A stretch of DNA of 64,000 nucleotides. It comes from an uncultured Lachnospiraceae bacterium (GTDB lineage: Bacteria; Bacillota; Clostridia; Lachnospirales; Lachnospiraceae). Under the pieces are notes generated by a model. The model was not told the DNA's origin and did not search any database. It was given only the letters and a program-made list of their open reading frames with translations. The stretch spans positions 146,906-210,905 of the forward strand of contig CARHSH010000001.1 of the NCBI GenBank assembly GCA_948989975.1, in the 5' to 3' direction. Shown in pieces: positions 13,704 to 64,000 of this stretch. A program made the position numbers and the translations under genes. Within the stretch, counting starts at the first letter, position 1; each line of letters starts with the position of its first letter.

Positions 13704-14177
13704 ATGGAGGAAGAAATGAGGACAGACTGCAGACGGGATACAGATGGGGTTTTAAATGAATTGCTGGTAAAATTATTTAAAAATATTGTAGAAATAGAAG
13801 AAAAATTTTTGATTACGCCAGAATTTAAAGATATAAGCGTGAATGATATGCACGTCATAGAAGCAGTCGGGATCACTGAGCCAAAGAGTATGTCCATGAT
13901 TGCGAAATTAATGTCTGTCACGACAGGTACGCTAACGAAATCTATGGACGGGCTTTCTGAAAAAGGATATGTATTCCGAAACCGTGGGACGAAGGATAAG
14001 CGGGTGATGTTTGTGTCCCTGACTGAAAAAGGCAGAAACGCTTTTTTTCACCATGAAAGGTTTCATAGGAATATGATTTCCAAAATAAAAGACGGAATCA
14101 GCGAGCATGAAACGACAGTGCTTATATATGCGCTGGCAAAATTAAATGATTATTTTCATCAAATTTATAAACGGTAA
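13704..14177 (+). CDS. MarR-family transcriptional regulator (FabT-like candidate)
   Basis: A winged-HTH MarR-like core (SMIAKLMSVTTGTLTKSMDGLSEKGYVFRNRGTKDKR), at the 3' end of the fab operon. Start taken at the ATG at 13704. Confidence 0.7.
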   Translation: MEEEMRTDCRRDTDGVLNELLVKLFKNIVEIEEKFLITPEFKDISVNDMHVIEAVGITEPKSMSMIAKLMSVTTGTLTKSMDGLSEKGYVFRNRGTKDKRVMFVSLTEKGRNAFFHHERFHRNMISKIKDGISEHETTVLIYALAKLNDYFHQIYKR

Positions 14178-14184
14178 TTGTCTG

Positions 14185-14226
14185 AAAAGAATGGATTGGG
14201 CGTAAGGTTCAATCCATTCTTTTCTA
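14185..14226 (+). terminator. Hairpin terminator after marR (aaaagaatggattg / caatccattctttt)
   Basis: 14-bp perfect stem followed by a T-rich tract. Confidence 0.5.
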
Positions 14227-14315
14227 ATCTGCGGCGGCAATTTTCTGACTGGGGACAGAGAAACGGGAGGAAAGCAAATATATGCCTGTCGGGAGAAATG
14301 GAATCCAAAGAAATA

Positions 14316-14375
14316 CGGGATTAAGGAAATCTTAAGATTCCCTTTCTTGCGTGTGATATAGGGCTATGGTATAAT
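14316..14375 (+). promoter_or_regulatory. Dyad element centred on CTTAAG (14325..14342), followed by the promoter TTGCGT-17-TATAAT (14347..14375) of the CPBP/ABC operon
   Basis: Near-perfect 18-bp palindrome ggaaatcttaagattccc immediately upstream of a good -35/-10 pair. Confidence 0.35.
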
Positions 14376-14400
14376 TGATAAGATTTAAGGAGGAAAAAGA

Positions 14401-15375
14401 ATGGAACCATTATTGAACGCCCCGGCGGCAGTGCAGCAGGCGAAGGCCTCGCAGAAGGGGCTGCATTGGGCGTTGGAAATTGTCATTTTTATTGCGGTGT
14501 TTTTTGTCTGTATGATTGGAGAAATGCTGCTTATGCTCCCGATTCAGGCAATGCTTTTGATGAGGGACAAAACTTATTTGTCGGCTTTAAAATCCGGCAA
14601 TCCGGATTTTATTATAGAAGCTTCCGAAAATGCAATCAGTGGAGACGTAAGTCTTATCCTCTCCTTGTTTGTAACGGCTGTTATGACGGCCATTGTTTTT
14701 CTGTTCTGTAAGTTTATCCAAAAAAGGAGGCTTTCATCTTTAGGCTTTGTCAAAAAGGGCTTTGCATCTGCATATCTGAAAGGTCTTTTGCTTGGCTTTC
14801 TTATGTTTTCCGCAGCAGTGTTAATTTGCGTTTTAACGGGTTCGTTAAAACTTACATATTCGCCCGAACGGTTTGCGTTTCCGGCATTCCTGTTCATAGC
14901 GGCCGGCTATATGGTTCAGGGAATGGCTGAGGAAGTTTTATGCCGCGGGTATTTTATGGTGTCTTTGGGGCGGCGCTATCCTATGGCGGCCGCGGCTGTC
15001 ATTAATGCCACAGCATTTGCGGCCATGCATCTGTTTAATCCCGGAATTTCGCCATTGGCGGTTATAAATTTAATATTGTTTGGCATTTTTGCATCCGTTT
15101 GTTTTATCCAGACAAATAATATCTGGCTGATTGGCGCCCTGCATTCCGTTTGGAATCTGACGCAGGGAAATGTGTATGGAATTAAAGTCAGCGGCATGGA
15201 TTCAAGATGCAGTGTTTTTTCGGCTTCAACGCCGGAAGGCATGGAGATATTTCATGGCGGGGCGTTTGGGCTGGAGGGCGGCCTTGCAGTGACGATTGTG
15301 CTAATGGCAGGAATAGCAGCCATGCTGTTTCTGTTAAAAAATAATAAAAAAGAGATGGCGGTGGAAAAACTATGA
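14401..15375 (+). CDS. CPBP-family intramembrane metalloprotease (CAAX protease / Abi-type self-immunity)
   Basis: Multi-TM protein with EEVLCRGY, FAAMHLFNP and HSVWN motifs (the EExxxR / FxxxH / HxxxN triad). Confidence 0.75.
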   Translation: MEPLLNAPAAVQQAKASQKGLHWALEIVIFIAVFFVCMIGEMLLMLPIQAMLLMRDKTYLSALKSGNPDFIIEASENAISGDVSLILSLFVTAVMTAIVFLFCKFIQKRRLSSLGFVKKGFASAYLKGLLLGFLMFSAAVLICVLTGSLKLTYSPERFAFPAFLFIAAGYMVQGMAEEVLCRGYFMVSLGRRYPMAAAAVINATAFAAMHLFNPGISPLAVINLILFGIFASVCFIQTNNIWLIGALHSVWNLTQGNVYGIKVSGMDSRCSVFSASTPEGMEIFHGGAFGLEGGLAVTIVLMAGIAAMLFLLKNNKKEMAVEKL

Positions 15376-16262
15376 AACTGGAATTAAAAGACATTCAGAA
15401 AAGTTTTGGGGAAAAAGAAGTGCTCAAAGGCATTTCGTTTTCCGCGGTCAGCGGCAAGGCATTTGGTCTGCTGGGAAGGAACGGGGCGGGAAAAACGACG
15501 ACAATCCGTATTTTAATGGATGTGTTTTCCGCAGATGGCGGGAAAGTGACGATTGATGGCGCGCCGGTAAATTATCAAGCAATTAAAATTGGTTATCTGC
15601 CGGAAGAACGCGGGCTGTACCCGAAGAAAAAAATCATCGACCAGTTGCGCTATTTTGCCGAACTGCATGGAATGAAAAGCAGTGAAGCGGTGAAAGCGAT
15701 CGATTATTGGCTTGACCGGCTTGATATGATGGAACACCGGGACAAACGCCTTGATACGCTTTCAAAAGGAAACCAGCAGAAAATACAGCTTATTACGGCG
15801 CTTGCCCATAATCCAGACATTGTAATTTTAGATGAACCGTTTTCCGGATTAGATCCGGTCAATGCCATGCTGTTAAAAGATGTGGTGAAAGAAGAAATTG
15901 CAAATGGAAAAATTGTGCTTTTTTCAAGTCATCAAATGAACTATATTGAGGAATTTTGTGACAGAATTGCGATCTTAAACAATGGAAGCGTAGCAATACA
16001 AGGAGACATTAATGAAATAAAGCGGAATTATGTGCGTGATAAGCTGGTGGCGCGTTCCGATCAGGCAGGTGAGATTCTTACAGAGTTAGGGGCTTGCTGT
16101 ACGAAAAAAGAAGATGGAAGCCTGCTCATTCAGTTGAAGTCGGAAGGGCAGAAACAGGAAATGATGAAGCGTCTGACGGAAGCGTATGATATTGATGAAA
16201 TCAAAGTGTTTGAGCCGTCGCTGAATGACATTTTTGTCGAGCATGCCGGAGATCATGTCTAA
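15372..16262 (+). CDS. ABC transporter ATP-binding protein (ABC-2 subtype)
   Basis: Walker A GRNGAGKTT, signature LSKGNQQK, Walker B ILDEPFSGLD. Start overlaps the CPBP gene stop. Confidence 0.9.
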   Translation: MKLELKDIQKSFGEKEVLKGISFSAVSGKAFGLLGRNGAGKTTTIRILMDVFSADGGKVTIDGAPVNYQAIKIGYLPEERGLYPKKKIIDQLRYFAELHGMKSSEAVKAIDYWLDRLDMMEHRDKRLDTLSKGNQQKIQLITALAHNPDIVILDEPFSGLDPVNAMLLKDVVKEEIANGKIVLFSSHQMNYIEEFCDRIAILNNGSVAIQGDINEIKRNYVRDKLVARSDQAGEILTELGACCTKKEDGSLLIQLKSEGQKQEMMKRLTEAYDIDEIKVFEPSLNDIFVEHAGDHV

Positions 16263-59105: not shown

Positions 59106-59807
59106 ATGTTAAAAATCGCAGTTTGTGACGATGACAGTTTGATACGGGAGATTGTGCGCGCGGCAGTGGAGCGGACAGTGAATGCCAAAACAGATTTCTA
59201 TGAGAGCGGGGAAGATTTGCTTTCTTCTGAGACGGCCTATGACATTGTTTTTCTCGATATTTGTTTTGGGGGAGAAGGGGATACGCAAAAGCAAAATGGC
59301 ATGGAGACTGCGAGAAAGTACCGGAGCCGTTCAGATGGCCTGATTATTTTTATAACGGCTTTGCGGGAATATGTATTTGAAGCCTATGACGTAGAGGCGT
59401 TTCATTATCTGACAAAACCGCTTGATGAAGAAAAATTATGCAGCGTCATCAAACGCGCGGCGGCAAAGGCAGAGGAAAAAATTGTCATTCCGGTCTTGTC
59501 GGTGAAGGCAAATGGGAAATGCCTTCAGATAAAGACGCCAGATATTTATTATGCTGAAAATGACGGAAGGAAAGTGGCGCTGCATACGAAAAATGGCGTT
59601 GTTTCCTACTATGAGAAAATGGAAGCGCTGCAGCAGGAATTAGGGGAGGGGTTTTACCGCTCACACAGGGGCTATCTTGTCAATTTGAATGAAATTGCAG
59701 GATATGACCGCACAAGCATTACTTTAAAATGCGGGGATACCGTGTTCTTAGCAAAGTTAAAATACAATGATTTTGTGGCGGCATATATGGATTATTTAAT
59801 GAAATAA
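59106..59807 (+). CDS. LytTR-family response regulator
   Basis: Receiver domain (MLKIAVCDDD... VFLDI) plus a LytTR DNA-binding domain (YYAENDGRKVALHTKNG...SHRGYLVNLNEI). Confidence 0.85.
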   Translation: MLKIAVCDDDSLIREIVRAAVERTVNAKTDFYESGEDLLSSETAYDIVFLDICFGGEGDTQKQNGMETARKYRSRSDGLIIFITALREYVFEAYDVEAFHYLTKPLDEEKLCSVIKRAAAKAEEKIVIPVLSVKANGKCLQIKTPDIYYAENDGRKVALHTKNGVVSYYEKMEALQQELGEGFYRSHRGYLVNLNEIAGYDRTSITLKCGDTVFLAKLKYNDFVAAYMDYLMK

Positions 59808-59818
59808 TTAGGACGGGA

Positions 59819-61297
59819 ATGGAAATGAAAAATGTAATCTATGCTTGTCTGGACATTGCAGAATCAGCGGCTTTAGGAGGTCTGTTGGTTTATCTGATGA
59901 AAGGAATGCTGCCGGAGCGGTTTGTCTGGAAGGGGAAAATCCACGCTTCTTTCTTTTTTTGGCTGCAGTTTGTGGCGGCGCGTGAATTTTTGTCGTATTC
60001 AAACTTGGTGAAACGTCTGATTTACGGGGAGGGAATGCAGATTGCAAGCAGCAGGCAGAGCATAGCTCCTGTACTGGCAAGCTTGTGCATAACGCTTTTG
60101 GCGGGATTCCTATTGTATCGGGGAAGCCGCATAAAAGCAGTCTCTCTTGTGGCGGCGTTTTATGCTTTTTTGGAGCTGATACGGTTCTTTATGTATCCAT
60201 TTGCGGTCTGGTGCATTGGCAGATGGGTGGATTGGTATACGGAGCGAAATTTTGTGGCAGAAAATGGCGATCTCGCTTTATATTATGCGGGAATTGAGCG
60301 GGTGGAGCTGTTTTGGAATGTGTCTCATGCTTGTCTGGCGTTTGCAGGGGTTTTAACGTGTGTTTTTTTGTATAAACGCGCGCTGGCGTCTGGCGGGACG
60401 GCATACCGGCCGGAAGAAGCGGCTGTTTTGTGCGTGCCGGAGCTGATGGGGCTGTCATTTACGGTAATGTTAAGGAGTATTTTGTTTTATTATGAAAAGG
60501 AAGTCTATAATCTGGTGGATCATTATCCGGAATTGAATGGAATGATCCCCTGTGTGGCGTTTCTTTGCATTGCATCTATTCTTTTAAATGTGAAAATGCT
60601 TGGAAAGGTGGAAAGAGAGCATGAGAAAAGGCGGCGGGCCGAGTTGTGCCAAAGCCGGGCGGAGGAGCTGTATGCGCATGTCAAAGATTTGGAAAGCGTA
60701 AATTTAAAAATACGGGGAATGAAGCATGATTTAAAACATTATACGGCGGATATCCAGGCGCTTCTTTTGAAAATTGAATCTGGTGATATGTGGGCAAAAG
60801 AGGAACTGCGCCATTATGTGGATTCGATGCATCTGTCCTTAGAGCGGCTTGACAGTAAATGCCAGACGAACCACCCAGTTACAGACGTGATTATAGGGCG
60901 GTATGAGCGGCTGATGGAGCAAAAGCAGATTTCATTTTCCTGTGATTTTATTTATCCAAAGCAGTTTGGCATTGATGTTTTTGATTTGAGCGTAATTTTA
61001 AACAATGGATTGGAAAACGCCTTAGAAGCGTGTGAACGGGAACCGGGAAAAGCAAAGGCTTCCATTCTGTCGAAACAGAAAGGGAATATGTTTTTTATTA
61101 CGATTGAAAATACATGTTCAAAGCGGATGCGCTGGGGAGAGGAATTTCCTATTTCAGAGAAGCGCGAAAACGGACATGGGCTGGGCTTAAAAAATATAAA
61201 GGACTGCGCGGAACGGTATTTTGGCAGAGTATGCGTACAGATATTGGATAATCGGTTTATTTTGACGGTTATGCTTCAGGGGCAGTCTGTTCCATGA
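59819..61297 (+). CDS. AgrC/LytS-like GHKL sensor histidine kinase (HATPase_c_5)
   Basis: An N-terminal multi-TM sensor (about 6 helices), a conserved His region (MKHDLKHY), and the ATP-binding motifs NGLENALEA and GHGLGLKNI. Confidence 0.8.
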   Translation: MEMKNVIYACLDIAESAALGGLLVYLMKGMLPERFVWKGKIHASFFFWLQFVAAREFLSYSNLVKRLIYGEGMQIASSRQSIAPVLASLCITLLAGFLLYRGSRIKAVSLVAAFYAFLELIRFFMYPFAVWCIGRWVDWYTERNFVAENGDLALYYAGIERVELFWNVSHACLAFAGVLTCVFLYKRALASGGTAYRPEEAAVLCVPELMGLSFTVMLRSILFYYEKEVYNLVDHYPELNGMIPCVAFLCIASILLNVKMLGKVEREHEKRRRAELCQSRAEELYAHVKDLESVNLKIRGMKHDLKHYTADIQALLLKIESGDMWAKEELRHYVDSMHLSLERLDSKCQTNHPVTDVIIGRYERLMEQKQISFSCDFIYPKQFGIDVFDLSVILNNGLENALEACEREPGKAKASILSKQKGNMFFITIENTCSKRMRWGEEFPISEKRENGHGLGLKNIKDCAERYFGRVCVQILDNRFILTVMLQGQSVP

Positions 61298-61397
61298 CAA
61301 AAATAAGGTTATTTGTTACAAAGGACTGTACATTCAAAAAGAGATTGCCGATACTAATAATACATCGTAAAAAACAGATTGCACAGGAGGGATTTTT

Positions 61398-62078
61398 ATG
61401 CGTATTACAAATCAGATGTTAGCCAGAACAGCCCAAAAAAGCGGGATTCCACTACAGCAGACGTCTTTACTGGATATTATGAATAAGAAATCGGCGTCCG
61501 CTTCAGATTGGGCGTCTTCTCTGGGAAATACGAAAAATACAAATTCACTTCTCCAGAATTTAAGCGATAAGGAGAATAAAAAGTTAGGAGAGGCGGCAAA
61601 AAATTTAAGCGGTTATGCGGCAGGTCTCTTAGGAGACGGAGAAGATTCCCTGTTTGCGGAAGCGGAAAAAACGGGGGACACGAAAGAACTTGTGGATCAC
61701 ATTTCAGGCATGGTGGATTCTTATAATAAAACAATCAAACAGTTAAAAGGATCTGATTCAGCGCTGAATGGTTTTTATCTTCAGGAACTGAAAAACTATG
61801 CGGCAGAAAACGAAGATGCGTTAAAAGCGGCAGGCATTACGAGAAATAAGGACGGCAGCTTAAGCGTCGACAAAGATACGTTAAGCGCGGCAGGGCTTGA
61901 CGTATTGAAAGCGGCGTTTGGGGGCGCTTCCGGTTTTACGGAAAAGGTAGGCTATGTCAGCGGCAGAGTGGCGGAAAATGCATCTGCGTACAGCAACAGC
62001 ATTTTAAGCGGCTACAACAGCGCCGGAAAGGAAGCTCTTAGTTCCTACGCGAAGAATATGTACAATTTCTGGGGATAG
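61398..62078 (+). CDS. Hypothetical protein (226 aa) downstream of the LytTR two-component system
   Basis: The ORF has an RBS (AGGAGGGA); the N-terminus MRITNQML faintly recalls flagellar rod/hook-family N-termini, but there is no reliable assignment. Confidence 0.4.
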   Translation: MRITNQMLARTAQKSGIPLQQTSLLDIMNKKSASASDWASSLGNTKNTNSLLQNLSDKENKKLGEAAKNLSGYAAGLLGDGEDSLFAEAEKTGDTKELVDHISGMVDSYNKTIKQLKGSDSALNGFYLQELKNYAAENEDALKAAGITRNKDGSLSVDKDTLSAAGLDVLKAAFGGASGFTEKVGYVSGRVAENASAYSNSILSGYNSAGKEALSSYAKNMYNFWG

Positions 62079-62495
62079 GTGAGGCTTATGGTAGGAAATG
62101 TAGGTCAGATTGTTGAGTCGATGAATGCGGCGAATAATGCGCGATCGGGGCAAAATACAGCGAATGCGGCGTCGCCGGATTTTAAGGATTATCTGGAAAC
62201 GGCTCTGTTAAGTTCAAGAAACGGTCTGTTTTCCAGCGGATTGGGAGGCGGTTATTCGTACTTAAATCCGTTATCCGGCTCCGTCTGGCAGATAGCAATG
62301 TTAGAAGCTCTGCGGGACGAACTGAAAAAGGGACGTAAGTCAGAGGAGAAGGAAGGCGAAACCTTGAAGGAAGACGTTTCTTCTTCCCAGACGGAACAGA
62401 CGAAAAAGGAAGACTGGGTCAGTATCCGCGTGATTCGGCGGTATCAGTCTCCACATAAGGAAGAAAGCGGCGGAAACGTCCGTGTTTTGGTTTAA
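62079..62495 (+). CDS. Hypothetical protein (138 aa), translationally coupled to the preceding gene
   Basis: Starts 1 nt after the upstream stop; no recognisable motifs. Confidence 0.4.
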   Translation: MRLMVGNVGQIVESMNAANNARSGQNTANAASPDFKDYLETALLSSRNGLFSSGLGGGYSYLNPLSGSVWQIAMLEALRDELKKGRKSEEKEGETLKEDVSSSQTEQTKKEDWVSIRVIRRYQSPHKEESGGNVRVLV

Positions 62496-62532
62496 ATAAT
62501 TTCATATGCGGTTCAAGTATCGGTAAAAAAGG

Positions 62533-62571
62533 GACAGACTATCATTGTAAATCAAGATAGTCTGTTTTTTG
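62533..62571 (+). terminator. Rho-independent terminator (acagactatc...gatagtctgt + T6)
   Basis: Seen directly. Confidence 0.6.
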
Positions 62572-62624
62572 TTGTGTAAATTCTTCCATAATAATTTGTA
62601 TCACAAAAAACAAAGGAGGAGAAT

Positions 62625-63242
62625 ATGGGAAACATATACGGATATGCGCGTGTCAGTACGAGAGAGCAAAACGAGGACAGGCAGTTAATCGCATTACAGG
62701 AAGTTAGGGTGCCAAAACAAAATATTTATTTGGATAAGCAGTCGGGCAGGGACTTCAACCGTCCGATGTATCTGCGCTTATTAAAAAAACTAAAAAGGGA
62801 GGATCTTCTTTATATACAGAGCATAGATCGCCTTGGAAGGAATTATGATGAAATTTTAGAGCAATGGAGAATCTTAACGAAAGAGAGAAAAGTGGATATT
62901 TCAGTGCTGGACATGCCCCTGCTGGATACGAGGAGGGGGAAAGATTTAATGGGAACGTTTTTGAGTGACATTGTGCTTCAGGTATTGTCTTTTGTGGCGG
63001 AAAATGAGAGGAAATCAATCCGGCAGAGACAGAGAGAAGGAATAGAAGCGGCCAAACTGCGCGGCGTGCAGTTTGGCAGGCCGAAACTGCCGATGCCGGA
63101 AAATTTTTTGGAAGCTTATGCAAGGTGGGTTTCAAAAGAAGTGTCGGGGGCAAAAGCGGCGGAACAATGCCATATGACAATGTCGACTTTTTACAGATGG
63201 GCGAATCAAAGAAAAGAGCAGGAAAGCAGGGAAGAAAAATAA
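62625..63242 (+). CDS. Small serine recombinase (resolvase/invertase family, 205 aa)
   Basis: Catalytic N-terminus YARVSTREQNEDRQ (Ser nucleophile) and a C-terminal HTH (MSTFYRWANQRKE); RBS AAAGGAGGAG. Confidence 0.85.
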   Translation: MGNIYGYARVSTREQNEDRQLIALQEVRVPKQNIYLDKQSGRDFNRPMYLRLLKKLKREDLLYIQSIDRLGRNYDEILEQWRILTKERKVDISVLDMPLLDTRRGKDLMGTFLSDIVLQVLSFVAENERKSIRQRQREGIEAAKLRGVQFGRPKLPMPENFLEAYARWVSKEVSGAKAAEQCHMTMSTFYRWANQRKEQESREEK

Positions 63243-63255
63243 AATAGATTTCCAG

Positions 63256-63391
63256 AAAGTGTACCTTTTGCAAAAATCTGTAACATACATACTTTTAATT
63301 ATTTTAATATAAAATCGACAAAAAGGCAATAGAATTGACATTATTTTTGGGATTTGGAGCGTGGAGAGCTGGTTTTCAAAAGGTACACTTT
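63256..63391. mobile_element. Candidate invertible DNA segment (inverton): 15-bp perfect inverted repeats flanking a roughly 106-bp core
   Basis: IR-L aaagtgtaccttttg (63256..63270) and IR-R caaaaggtacacttt (63377..63391). The core carries, on the minus strand, a promoter-like TTGCCT-17-TAAAAT that currently points away from the downstream gene. Confidence 0.45.
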
Positions 63392-63529
63392 TTGAAAAAT
63401 GAAGTGAGTAAATTAGAAAAAATAGTCCATTTAGAGTTGCAAAATAGATGAAAGAGAGGAGGAGTAACGGAAGCGGTTCTTATGATGCAACAGATTATAT
63501 CAAATAAAAATGTTTAAGGAGAGGATACA

Positions 63530-63985
63530 ATGGCAAAGGAAATTAAATCGTTTAAAGTACATCCTGATTATGAAGAAGCGGAAATAAATTTTCGAAGAAA
63601 AGTGGGGTGGGAATTTATAAGCACACAAGAAATTTATAACAAAGACACCCATATGGAAGGAGGTATTTTCACTGATACTGTAACGAGTGTAACTGAGACA
63701 ACGCATTTTGTAAAACTTACATTCCAGAGGGAGACGGAAAATGTAAACCCAGAGTTAATATCTTTGGAAAGGCAGATAGATAATATGCGTCCTCCAGAGG
63801 AACCACATACTTGGGGAACCATGGCTTTGATTGTAGGGTTTATGCTCTATGTGCTTCCGGGAATATTTATGATGTCATCTAATAAAAAGAAGAAGCAGGA
63901 ATATGAGCGCGTTTATTCTGAATATCAAAATGAGTTCAGGCGGCTGCTTGCCCGTGTAGATGAACTTCAAATGGTGAAATCTTAA
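63530..63985 (+). CDS. Hypothetical membrane-associated protein (151 aa)
   Basis: The ORF has the RBS AAGGAGAGG; one C-terminal TM helix (MALIVGFMLYVLPGIFMM). Confidence 0.45.
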   Translation: MAKEIKSFKVHPDYEEAEINFRRKVGWEFISTQEIYNKDTHMEGGIFTDTVTSVTETTHFVKLTFQRETENVNPELISLERQIDNMRPPEEPHTWGTMALIVGFMLYVLPGIFMMSSNKKKKQEYERVYSEYQNEFRRLLARVDELQMVKS

Positions 63986-64000
63986 AGAAAGATAAGGAGA

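Follow-up and report, generated by a model that had tools for sequence, protein, structure and literature searches.

The DNA analyzed here is a stretch of 64,000 nucleotides from an uncultured Lachnospiraceae bacterium (NCBI GenBank assembly GCA_948989975.1, contig CARHSH010000001.1, positions 146,906 to 210,905 of the forward strand), and this whole stretch is referred to below as the window. Close to its right-hand end lie a gene for a small serine recombinase (62625..63242, plus strand), a pair of short inverted repeats that bound a promoter-bearing segment (63263..63384), and the first gene (63530..63985, plus strand) of an operon that continues beyond the window. The arrangement was first noticed in a reading of the bare sequence (hereafter, the original prediction), in which it was proposed as a candidate phase-variable promoter switch. 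The comparison of this locus with its relatives in other genomes indicates that a reversible promoter of 124 bp most likely turns a predicted anti-invader gene cluster on and off.

The Recombinase

Small serine recombinases are recognized by a catalytic domain with a serine nucleophile, conserved arginine and aspartate residues, an E-helix, a Gly-Arg-Pro (GRP) arm, and a C-terminal helix-turn-helix, within a length of about 180-210 amino acids (aa). The catalytic domain, the serine, the Arg/Asp residues, and the GRP arm are all present in the 205-aa product of the gene at 62625..63242. The resolvase N-terminal catalytic domain (Pfam PF00239) spans residues 4-148 with an E-value of 3.5e-27, which confirms the resolvase/invertase-type gene of the original prediction. 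Ser11 is the nucleophile, the arm is formed by G151-R152-P153, and the C-terminal region can be aligned to Sin/Bin3 up to residue 191. Residues R9, S11, D68, R69, R72, G151, R152, and P153 are invariant among 30 homologs.

Among the relatives of solved structure, the first rank is held by Sin/Bin3 (2r0q, E 7.6e-30, 107 bits, residues 4-191 aligned), followed at lower scores by Tn3 (70 bits), gamma-delta (67 bits), and Gin (55 bits; 4m6f, E 8e-14; also 3uj3). The enzyme is nearer to Sin/Bin3 than to Tn3 or Gin and is classed here as Sin/beta-like. The Hin/Gin/Cin/Pin group was considered as its nearest kin and set aside, since Gin ranks under the Sin, Tn3, and gamma-delta resolvases; membership in the Mpi family (NCBIfam NF009949) was rejected at 47.8 bits against a cut-off of 272. 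A protein search with the recombinase returned at least 8000 matches, all with E < 1e-20; among the 120 matches listed, most are 72-79% identical, and the named ones come mostly from Lachnospiraceae. No paralog of the recombinase was found in the 64-kb window.

Crossover Sites

A perfect 15-mer, AAAGTGTACCTTTTG, stands at 63256-63270 on the plus strand, where it starts thirteen bases past the recombinase stop codon, and again at 63377-63391 on the minus strand. The 106 bp that this pair brackets (63271-63376) are as described in the original prediction. With up to two mismatches allowed, these two are the only matches in the 64-kb window (0.13 expected; two or more in 0 of 100 shuffles), and no further copies of the site were found in it. 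Beyond the 15-mer, the complementarity continues into arms of 26 nt (63249-63274 and 63373-63398) that match at 23 of 26 positions, and each arm has the form of a crossover site. The left site, TTTCCAGAAAGT GT ACCTTTTGCAAA (63249..63274, plus strand), begins 7 bp past the stop codon and is an imperfect 12-2-12 palindrome with a central GT at 63261-63262. The right site, TTTTCAAAAGGT AC ACTTTTTGAAAA (63373..63398, plus strand), is likewise a 12-2-12 palindrome, with a central AC at 63385-63386 between halves (63373-84 and 63387-98) that are palindromic at 11 of 12 positions.

The 12-2-12 layout is the crossover-site architecture of serine recombinases, in which one dimer binds each site and a staggered cut is made at the center. 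When the window was scanned for this layout with a TGTA/TACA core and a threshold of at least 9 of 12 palindromic positions, exactly two sites were found, and shuffled sequences gave a mean of 0.78. The window therefore holds two 26-bp 12-2-12 sites, inverted and with an asymmetric central dinucleotide, as is typical of Hin/Gin-type sites, and the same is seen at homologous loci. Because the GT/AC center is asymmetric and the sites are inverted, only inversion would be expected to yield ligatable products, given the known mechanism of these enzymes. The junctions predicted for the flipped state are TTCCAGAAAGTGTACCTTTTGAAAACCAGC on the left and GTTACAGATTTTTGCAAAAGGTACACTTTTTGAAAAATG on the right.

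Both cores have the form GT-NN-AC, reading GT-GT-AC on the left (AAAGT GT ACC) and GT-AC-AC on the right (AAGGT AC ACT). The core hexamer of the right site, GTACAC, also forms the core of Sin resH site I, for which the sequence AATT TGG GT AC AC CCT AATC was reported (PMC3985619, Table 1), and the six core of the beta recombinase is AGA GT AT AC TTA (PMC3985619, Table 1). The window core fits the requirement of beta, R-GT-WW-AC-Y, in the flanking GT and AC, but not in the central WW (PMC3985619).

The Invertible Segment and Its Promoter-Like Sites

Between the two central dinucleotides lies a segment of 122 bp (63263..63384), which corresponds to 124 bp from center to center and to about 98 bp of free DNA between the sites. 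On its minus strand, it carries a sigma-70-type promoter-like site, TTGCCT-17-TAAAAT (63301..63329), recognized by its consensus match and its conservation. The original prediction had picked out this site as the best promoter of the segment, and it proves to be the one that the family conserves: 40 bp separate the end of its -10 hexamer from the left-site center, compared with 38-43 bp across the family described below, and it is conserved in the closest relatives (L111, L112, and L194). In the window, this promoter is aimed at the 3' end of the recombinase gene, an orientation designated REV here, as opposed to FWD, in which the promoter faces the cargo; judging from this layout, REV is presumed to be the OFF state for the downstream operon.

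A second promoter-like site of similar score, TCGACA-18-(TG)CATTAT, is found on the plus strand (63315..63344). It stands back-to-back with the first, at 42 bp from the right-site center, the mirror image of the 40 bp on the other side. It is also present in L109, L111, and L194, but it is not general to the family, and it may act as a basal or weak promoter while the segment is oriented as here. Past the right site, a leader (63399..63529, plus strand) with the ribosome-binding site AAGGAGAGG at 63517-63525 runs up to the first gene of the operon; no plus-strand promoter-like site was found in this leader, and no Rfam family. The architecture is that of an inverton, with inverted repeats bounding a promoter-bearing segment upstream of a co-directional operon that the promoter could face.

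A Module Family in Gut Clostridia

In a genome scan with one genome per species, the best 80 of at least 600 matched stretches were kept, with recombinases 64-77% identical to that of the window. At 40 of these 80 best loci, a TGTA-core left site flanked by palindromic sequence has its center 12-55 bp past the recombinase stop codon, and a matching right site with a TACA core is found 113-148 bp beyond the left one. Once later loci are added, at least 47 distinct loci combine the recombinase with the two-site module. The outer half-sites vary by locus (TTACAGGAA, TTTGCAAAA, TCTAAAAAG, and TTCGAAAAG are examples), with the GT-NN-AC core and the palindromy kept, and this locus specificity suggests that every recombinase is paired with its own adjacent sites. 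Where the recombinases of relatives are 82-84% identical, the sites are conserved. Variant modules were observed at four loci, within about 0-260 bp past the recombinase stop codon, namely a central CT in L048, a central AA/TT in L022, and longer segments of ~229 bp in L029 and ~241 bp in L086.

The spacings of the 47 loci fall into the classes 113-117, 124-127, 134-139, and 147-148 bp, with nothing in between. The best-fitting period is 11.3 bp (Rayleigh R 0.80, p <= 5e-4, with 0 of 2000 uniform-null simulations as high), and the periodicity holds with just the 15 distinct values (p <= 5e-4). At 11.3 bp per turn, the 124 bp of the window amount to about 11.0 turns. When the segments were oriented by their best promoter-like site and aligned with the exit site as the anchor, the length variation was found to sit upstream of the -35, and the distance from promoter to exit site was fixed. 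The spacing classes may reflect helical phasing of sites that synapse across a very small loop, plausibly with the assistance of an HU-type protein, by analogy with Sin and beta.

The promoter consensus of the family consists of AT-rich upstream tracts, a TTGaAA -35, a 17-bp spacer, and a TG-n-TATAAT -10, and in 38 oriented loci the -10 hexamer ends 38-43 bp from the center of the exit site. By locus, 30 promoters are REV, 7-8 are FWD, and 9 gave no clear call. L111 was wrongly scored FWD, as alignment shows it to be co-oriented with the window. Pairwise alignment of the interiors of L010 and L012 gave a score of +22 when one was flipped and -4 in the same orientation, an example that supports a flipped relationship between loci.

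These comparisons bear on the possibility that the switch acts as a dimmer, with both orientations driving the operon at different strengths, or that its main output is antisense control of the recombinase. The promoter-like sites on both strands of the window, 42 and 40 bp from their exit sites and both conserved in the clade, are what a dimmer would show, and the REV promoter necessarily reads antisense into the recombinase gene, as the stop codon of this gene lies only 7 bp ahead of the left site. In most family members, however, a promoter at the canonical distance is found on one strand only. Moreover, the first downstream gene at the other loci is always co-directional, and in many of them it starts 25-100 bp past the right site, as expected of a regulated output. 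Either form of this explanation is regarded as distinctly unlikely, and a promoter that serves the operon in one orientation is preferred.

Relatives of the recombinase are also encoded in viruses. A total of 247 viral contig stretches in IMG/VR carry them, with 57-73% identity among the 80 kept (L113-L192), only about 7 of which have the two-site module downstream. Phage-borne recombinases of this kind probably have a different role.

Evidence for Inversion

Inversion was observed directly in a close homolog. The recombinase of this module, P0015, is 77% identical to that of the window, and contigs L099-L102 and L106 carry the module in one orientation, whereas L103, which comes from another sample, carries it in the opposite one. 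Compared with L100, the flanks of L103 are 100% identical over 626 bp (left) and 453 bp (right), and the 112-bp interior is the 100% reverse complement; natural inversion is thereby shown for this module. Four further contigs of P0015 (among L104-L108) end within the segment, two per orientation. In another module, P0011, 10 of 10 contigs end 83-131 bp past the recombinase stop codon, and the two orientations are represented by 4 and 6 of them. In P0011, the base at position +10 of the inner half-site, T or G, moves with the segment, which places the crossover between the site center and position +9. Both orientations were found in the P0015 module as well as across species. The phase-variable promoter switch of the original prediction is supported by the family of at least 47 loci, by the presence of both orientations in nature, and by the exact inversion between L103 and L100.

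The same data speak to another interpretation, which the original prediction had named as its possible refutation: the enzyme could be the resolvase of a transposon or plasmid, and the repeats res-like or terminal sequences. Its nearest solved relatives, Sin, Tn3, and gamma-delta, are resolvases, and the unit of recombinase, switch, and operon occurs in two chromosomal contexts, so that it may be part of a mobile island. The window sites, however, are inverted rather than the direct repeats of a resolution system and are just 124 bp apart, accessory sites were not found, and no transposase was called in the fetched flanks on either side. The equivalent segment of the homolog is inverted, not deleted. 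A resolvase is therefore highly improbable here, and the enzyme is better understood as an invertase of the adjacent segment.

The Cargo Operon

Longer contigs show that the operon consists of at least seven co-directional genes separated by 12-29-bp gaps, and all genes after the first lie beyond the end of the window. The first gene (63530..63985, plus strand) encodes a protein of 151 aa with one apparent hydrophobic stretch, WGTMALIVGFMLYVLPGIFMM, which was judged by eye and is only possibly membrane-spanning. The original prediction had named a small membrane protein as the regulated gene; this fits the 151-aa open reading frame (ORF) with its hydrophobic stretch, but the regulated unit is the operon of at least seven genes. 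The second gene encodes a 292-aa protein, the third an HSP70-like protein of 582 aa (Pfam), and the fourth an HSP70-vWA fusion of 698 aa (Pfam HSP70 and VWA). The 1005-aa product of the fifth gene has a weak, sub-threshold double-zinc-ribbon match and is homologous to an FN3-repeat protein of L200 (E 4e-49). The sixth (412 aa) is a DO-GTPase2 homolog, being related (28% identity, E 3e-46) to an L200 protein for which the Pfam match is solid, and the seventh (759 aa) contains GAP1-N2 (E 8.9e-11) and GAP1-M (E 1.2e-6) domains according to Pfam.

GAP1-N2/DO-GTPase conflict systems with an HSP70 theme were predicted by comparative genomics (Kaur et al., 2020; PMC7159879). The operon of the window displays this theme, with a DO-GTPase gene followed by a GAP1-N2 gene, HSP70 proteins, and a homolog of the FN3 protein (PMC7159879); no GrpE gene was seen in it, and PADLOC, whose models do not include such an operon, gave no meaningful matches on it. 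Its gene content leads us to predict that the cargo is a conflict (anti-invader) system of the GAP1-N2/DO-GTPase/HSP70-vWA type. In a sister species (L194-L199), recombinase, switch, and operon are again found together, but with different surroundings upstream. Related GAP1-N2 operons also begin with a homolog of the 151-aa gene; some of these have a recombinase, and others (L200 and L201-L210) do not, which indicates that the switch was added to the system rather than being a component of it.

One strain of the window's species, L001 (metagenome-assembled genome GCA_948856265.1), differs in the HSP70-vWA gene (14049-16145). Compared with L002 and L003, a CAG-to-TAG change at 14781 divides the gene into a 244-aa and a 444-aa part, which may represent cargo decay in this strain.

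At other loci, the first cargo genes are varied. They include an HKD+Snf2 helicase, Type II/IIG and C5 methyltransferases, a ResIII helicase resembling PbeA and Type IV enzymes, three TnpB-like proteins, an SLH-vWA surface protein, TadZ, CsrA, a GGDEF-EAL protein, and an SPFH protein. Defense or restriction-modification types account for 6 of the 20 first genes tested. The diversity of cargo across loci indicates that the module behaves as a portable switch cassette. The TnpB/Cas12f-like first genes are L012:6849-8159, L065:6825-8138, and L076:6786-7997, all three with a TNB domain; the L076 protein has OrfB_IS605 and HTH domains in addition, and both a phase-variable TnpB and an insertion sequence (IS) insertion are conceivable.

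Comparison With Known Systems

The window enzyme resembles Sin/Bin3 (BinR; Staphylococcus aureus pI9789-Tn552) in its size, in the aligned region (4-191), and in the GT-AC-AC core, and the six core of the beta recombinase (pSM19035), GT-AT-AC, is close to the window core (PMC3985619). Beta is listed as a resolvase/invertase, and it was reported that Sin and beta act on 86-90-bp res/six sites with an accessory site II and need Hbsu/HU (PMC3985619). At the window, in contrast, two bare inverted crossover sites enclose a promoter, and the outcome seen in the homolog is inversion. Accessory (site II-like) half-sites inside the segment were searched for at 47 loci, and none were found above shuffles (mean best match 8.87/12 versus 8.47), although strongly diverged sites could be missed by this search. 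By analogy, an HU/Hbsu-type bending protein is plausible at the window locus, as suggested by the 98 bp of inter-site DNA and the 11.3-bp spacing classes.

With Hin, Gin, Cin, and Pin, the locus shares a small serine recombinase and 26-bp 12-2-12 inverted sites with an asymmetric dinucleotide, and Hin also flips a promoter. The L009 half-site, TTATCAAAAAGT, resembles the hix half-site, TTATCAAAAACC. Unlike the sites of Hin and Gin, the window core is flanked by GT..AC and not by CC..GG, and Gin scores 55 bits compared with 107 for Sin. The recombinase gene of the window lies outside the invertible segment, which measures 124 bp, whereas the invertible segments of Hin and Gin are about 1-3 kb. 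Hin-family enzymes depend on a Fis-bound enhancer, and to our knowledge Firmicutes lack Fis.

Mpi of Bacteroides fragilis is also a small serine recombinase that flips short promoter segments and phase-varies operons in a gut commensal. It acts in trans on many dispersed invertons (PMC5903667), whereas in the present family every recombinase is accompanied by an inverton of its own next to it, and the outer half-sites differ between loci. A small serine recombinase had been regarded in the original prediction as an unusual enzyme for an inverton, but Hin is a precedent, as is Mpi (PMC5903667). The tyrosine-recombinase invertons of Clostridia (C. difficile RecV; hCom2 inverton group 139) are likewise short invertible regulatory segments upstream of operons, but both the enzyme class and the repeats are different. 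In the hCom2 survey, the main Clostridia group was linked to tyrosine recombinases, and the word "serine" is absent from the main text (PMC11892184). The likeness to Bacteroides and Clostridioides invertons that had been drawn at the outset holds for the promoter inverton as such; the enzyme and sites are Sin/beta-like, unlike those of Clostridioides, where tyrosine recombinases are at work.

The fimS switch of E. coli, whose recombinases FimB and FimE are of the tyrosine class too, offers a possible analogy, in that an OFF-state promoter reading into the recombinase gene could bias the direction of switching. Overall, the locus would work like the Hin and Mpi promoter switches, and its protein sequence and site core place it with Sin and beta.

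Other Features Around the Recombinase Gene

A terminator-like hairpin, ACAGACTATC ... GATAGTCTGT followed by a T-run, is found at 62534..62571 on the plus strand. This inverted repeat would close the upstream gene, so that the recombinase is probably transcribed alone. Directly upstream of the ribosome-binding site of the recombinase, at 62563-62612, there is an imperfect inverted repeat of 23 nt with a spacer of 4 nt; it was considered as a conserved structure and rejected, having a weak, sub-threshold match to a miRNA family and no consistent signal in homologs (mean z-score -1.1). Within the recombinase coding sequence, a 27-nt near-perfect palindrome at 63051-63077 (codons A-K-L-R-G-V-Q-F-G) looks terminator-like on the minus strand. 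An antisense terminator was rejected for it, since its pairing reaches 12/13 only in this species and 4-9/13 in about 100 homologs, and the palindrome is probably a codon-level coincidence. No match to known RNA families (Rfam) was obtained in 62300-64000.

Further upstream (59106-62495), genes for a LytTR response regulator and a histidine kinase occupy 59106-61297; after them come a gene whose 226-aa product has a FliD_C match that is weak and sub-threshold, and an ORF of 138 aa. These genes are placed outside the cassette because they are absent beside the sister-species copy of the recombinase-operon unit (L194).

Proposed Mechanism and Weighing of the Evidence

The locus is a real inverton, of which the anatomy, the family conservation, and the cargo identity are established. 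It probably functions as a self-contained invertible promoter cassette that gates the downstream operon. In the proposed mechanism, recombinase dimers would bind both 26-bp inverted sites, 124 bp apart, and the sites would synapse across a very small phased loop, presumably helped by an HU-type bending protein. Cleavage at the central GT/AC, a 180-degree subunit rotation, and religation would then flip the 122-bp interior. In REV, the promoter, which has an AT-rich region upstream of it, would fire leftward through the left site and antisense into the recombinase gene; since this leaves the operon without a recognizable promoter, REV would be the OFF state. In FWD, about 40 bp would separate the same promoter from the right site ahead of it, and transcription would run through the 151-aa gene and the rest of the operon (ON). 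A minority of cells would thus express a probably costly defense. More speculatively, antisense transcription in the OFF state may damp the recombinase, by analogy with the orientational control of fimE, and such damping would explain the OFF bias of the assemblies.

Several points weigh against this interpretation. All 7 sequences of the window's species (the window, L001-L003, L007, L008, and L109) are REV, and all 6 contigs of the sister species (L194-L199) are in the window orientation as well, a pattern that a locked or very rarely flipping switch could produce. The present state is perhaps not fully OFF, because a plus-strand promoter-like site of equal score is present at 63315-63344, and the promoters are identified by consensus matches only. 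No accessory half-site was found in the interior above the level of shuffles, though Sin and beta normally need site II and HU. The spacing periodicity is drawn from related loci, a problem that the test on distinct values lessens without removing it. Finally, the operon is not recognized by PADLOC, and its defense role is therefore a published prediction.

An inverted copy was sought in the window's species. A metagenome scan with the left flank plus the left repeat gave two contigs, both native, and the longest contigs from ENA, NCBI, and Logan were all in the native orientation. Exact look-up of junction-spanning ORFs in a collection of 15 billion proteins returned none for the flipped state, but none for the native state either. 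A minority ON population is possible, because assemblies report the majority state.

It could accordingly be argued that the switch of this lineage has become a fossil or is locked, with the operon permanently silent or run from another promoter. The single orientation of 7/7 and 6/6 sequences fits this explanation, as does the nonsense mutation in the HSP70-vWA gene of L001, which hints at relaxed selection on the cargo. The recombinase ORF is nevertheless intact, with all invariant catalytic residues present, and the sites keep identical cores and 23/26 repeat matches and are conserved where recombinases are 82-84% identical. Contigs L110 and L193 break exactly at the sites. Only the majority state is given by assemblies, and most homolog loci are REV too (30 versus 7-8). 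A lost or locked switch is thus considered unlikely, and we infer that the working cassette also inverts in the window's species.

With regard to the two broken contigs, L110 (1100-1184) has a DNA tail identical to the window and ends inside the left site, and the 47-kb sister-species contig L193 (1-30) has its first bases within the right site. A mixture of orientations in the samples may be the cause of such breaks at the repeats.

Implications

A serine-recombinase inverton family in Clostridia was found undescribed in the surveys PMC11892184, PMC11602134, PMC5903667, and PMC11741434. It is tentatively suggested, with rather more reserve than for the switch itself and with doubt slightly outweighing confidence, that the loci form an uncharacterized class of portable mini-inverton cassettes in gut Clostridia. 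Members of such a class would combine a Sin-like enzyme with two bare sites 113-148 bp apart, would lack the accessory sites or enhancer used by all studied small serine recombinases, and would have a loop quantized at ~11.3 bp, the in vivo helical repeat. They would have been recruited repeatedly to restriction-modification, helicase-nuclease, and GAP1/DO-GTPase systems, with an OFF promoter that reads antisense into the recombinase and biases the switch.

For the mechanism of site-specific recombination, a natural Sin-family enzyme that inverts ~124 bp between minimal sites would pose the question of how synapsis and activation are achieved without site II or an enhancer. For the cargo, strains locked ON or OFF would provide an experimental handle on the GAP1-N2/DO-GTPase/HSP70-vWA system, that is, on what it defends against and at what cost. 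Half or more of the closest recombinase homologs, from Lachnospiraceae and Oscillospiraceae, carry the module beside defense, surface, and signaling genes. As the module is common beside defense genes, phase variation of defense repertoires in gut Clostridia may be far more frequent than current annotation suggests.

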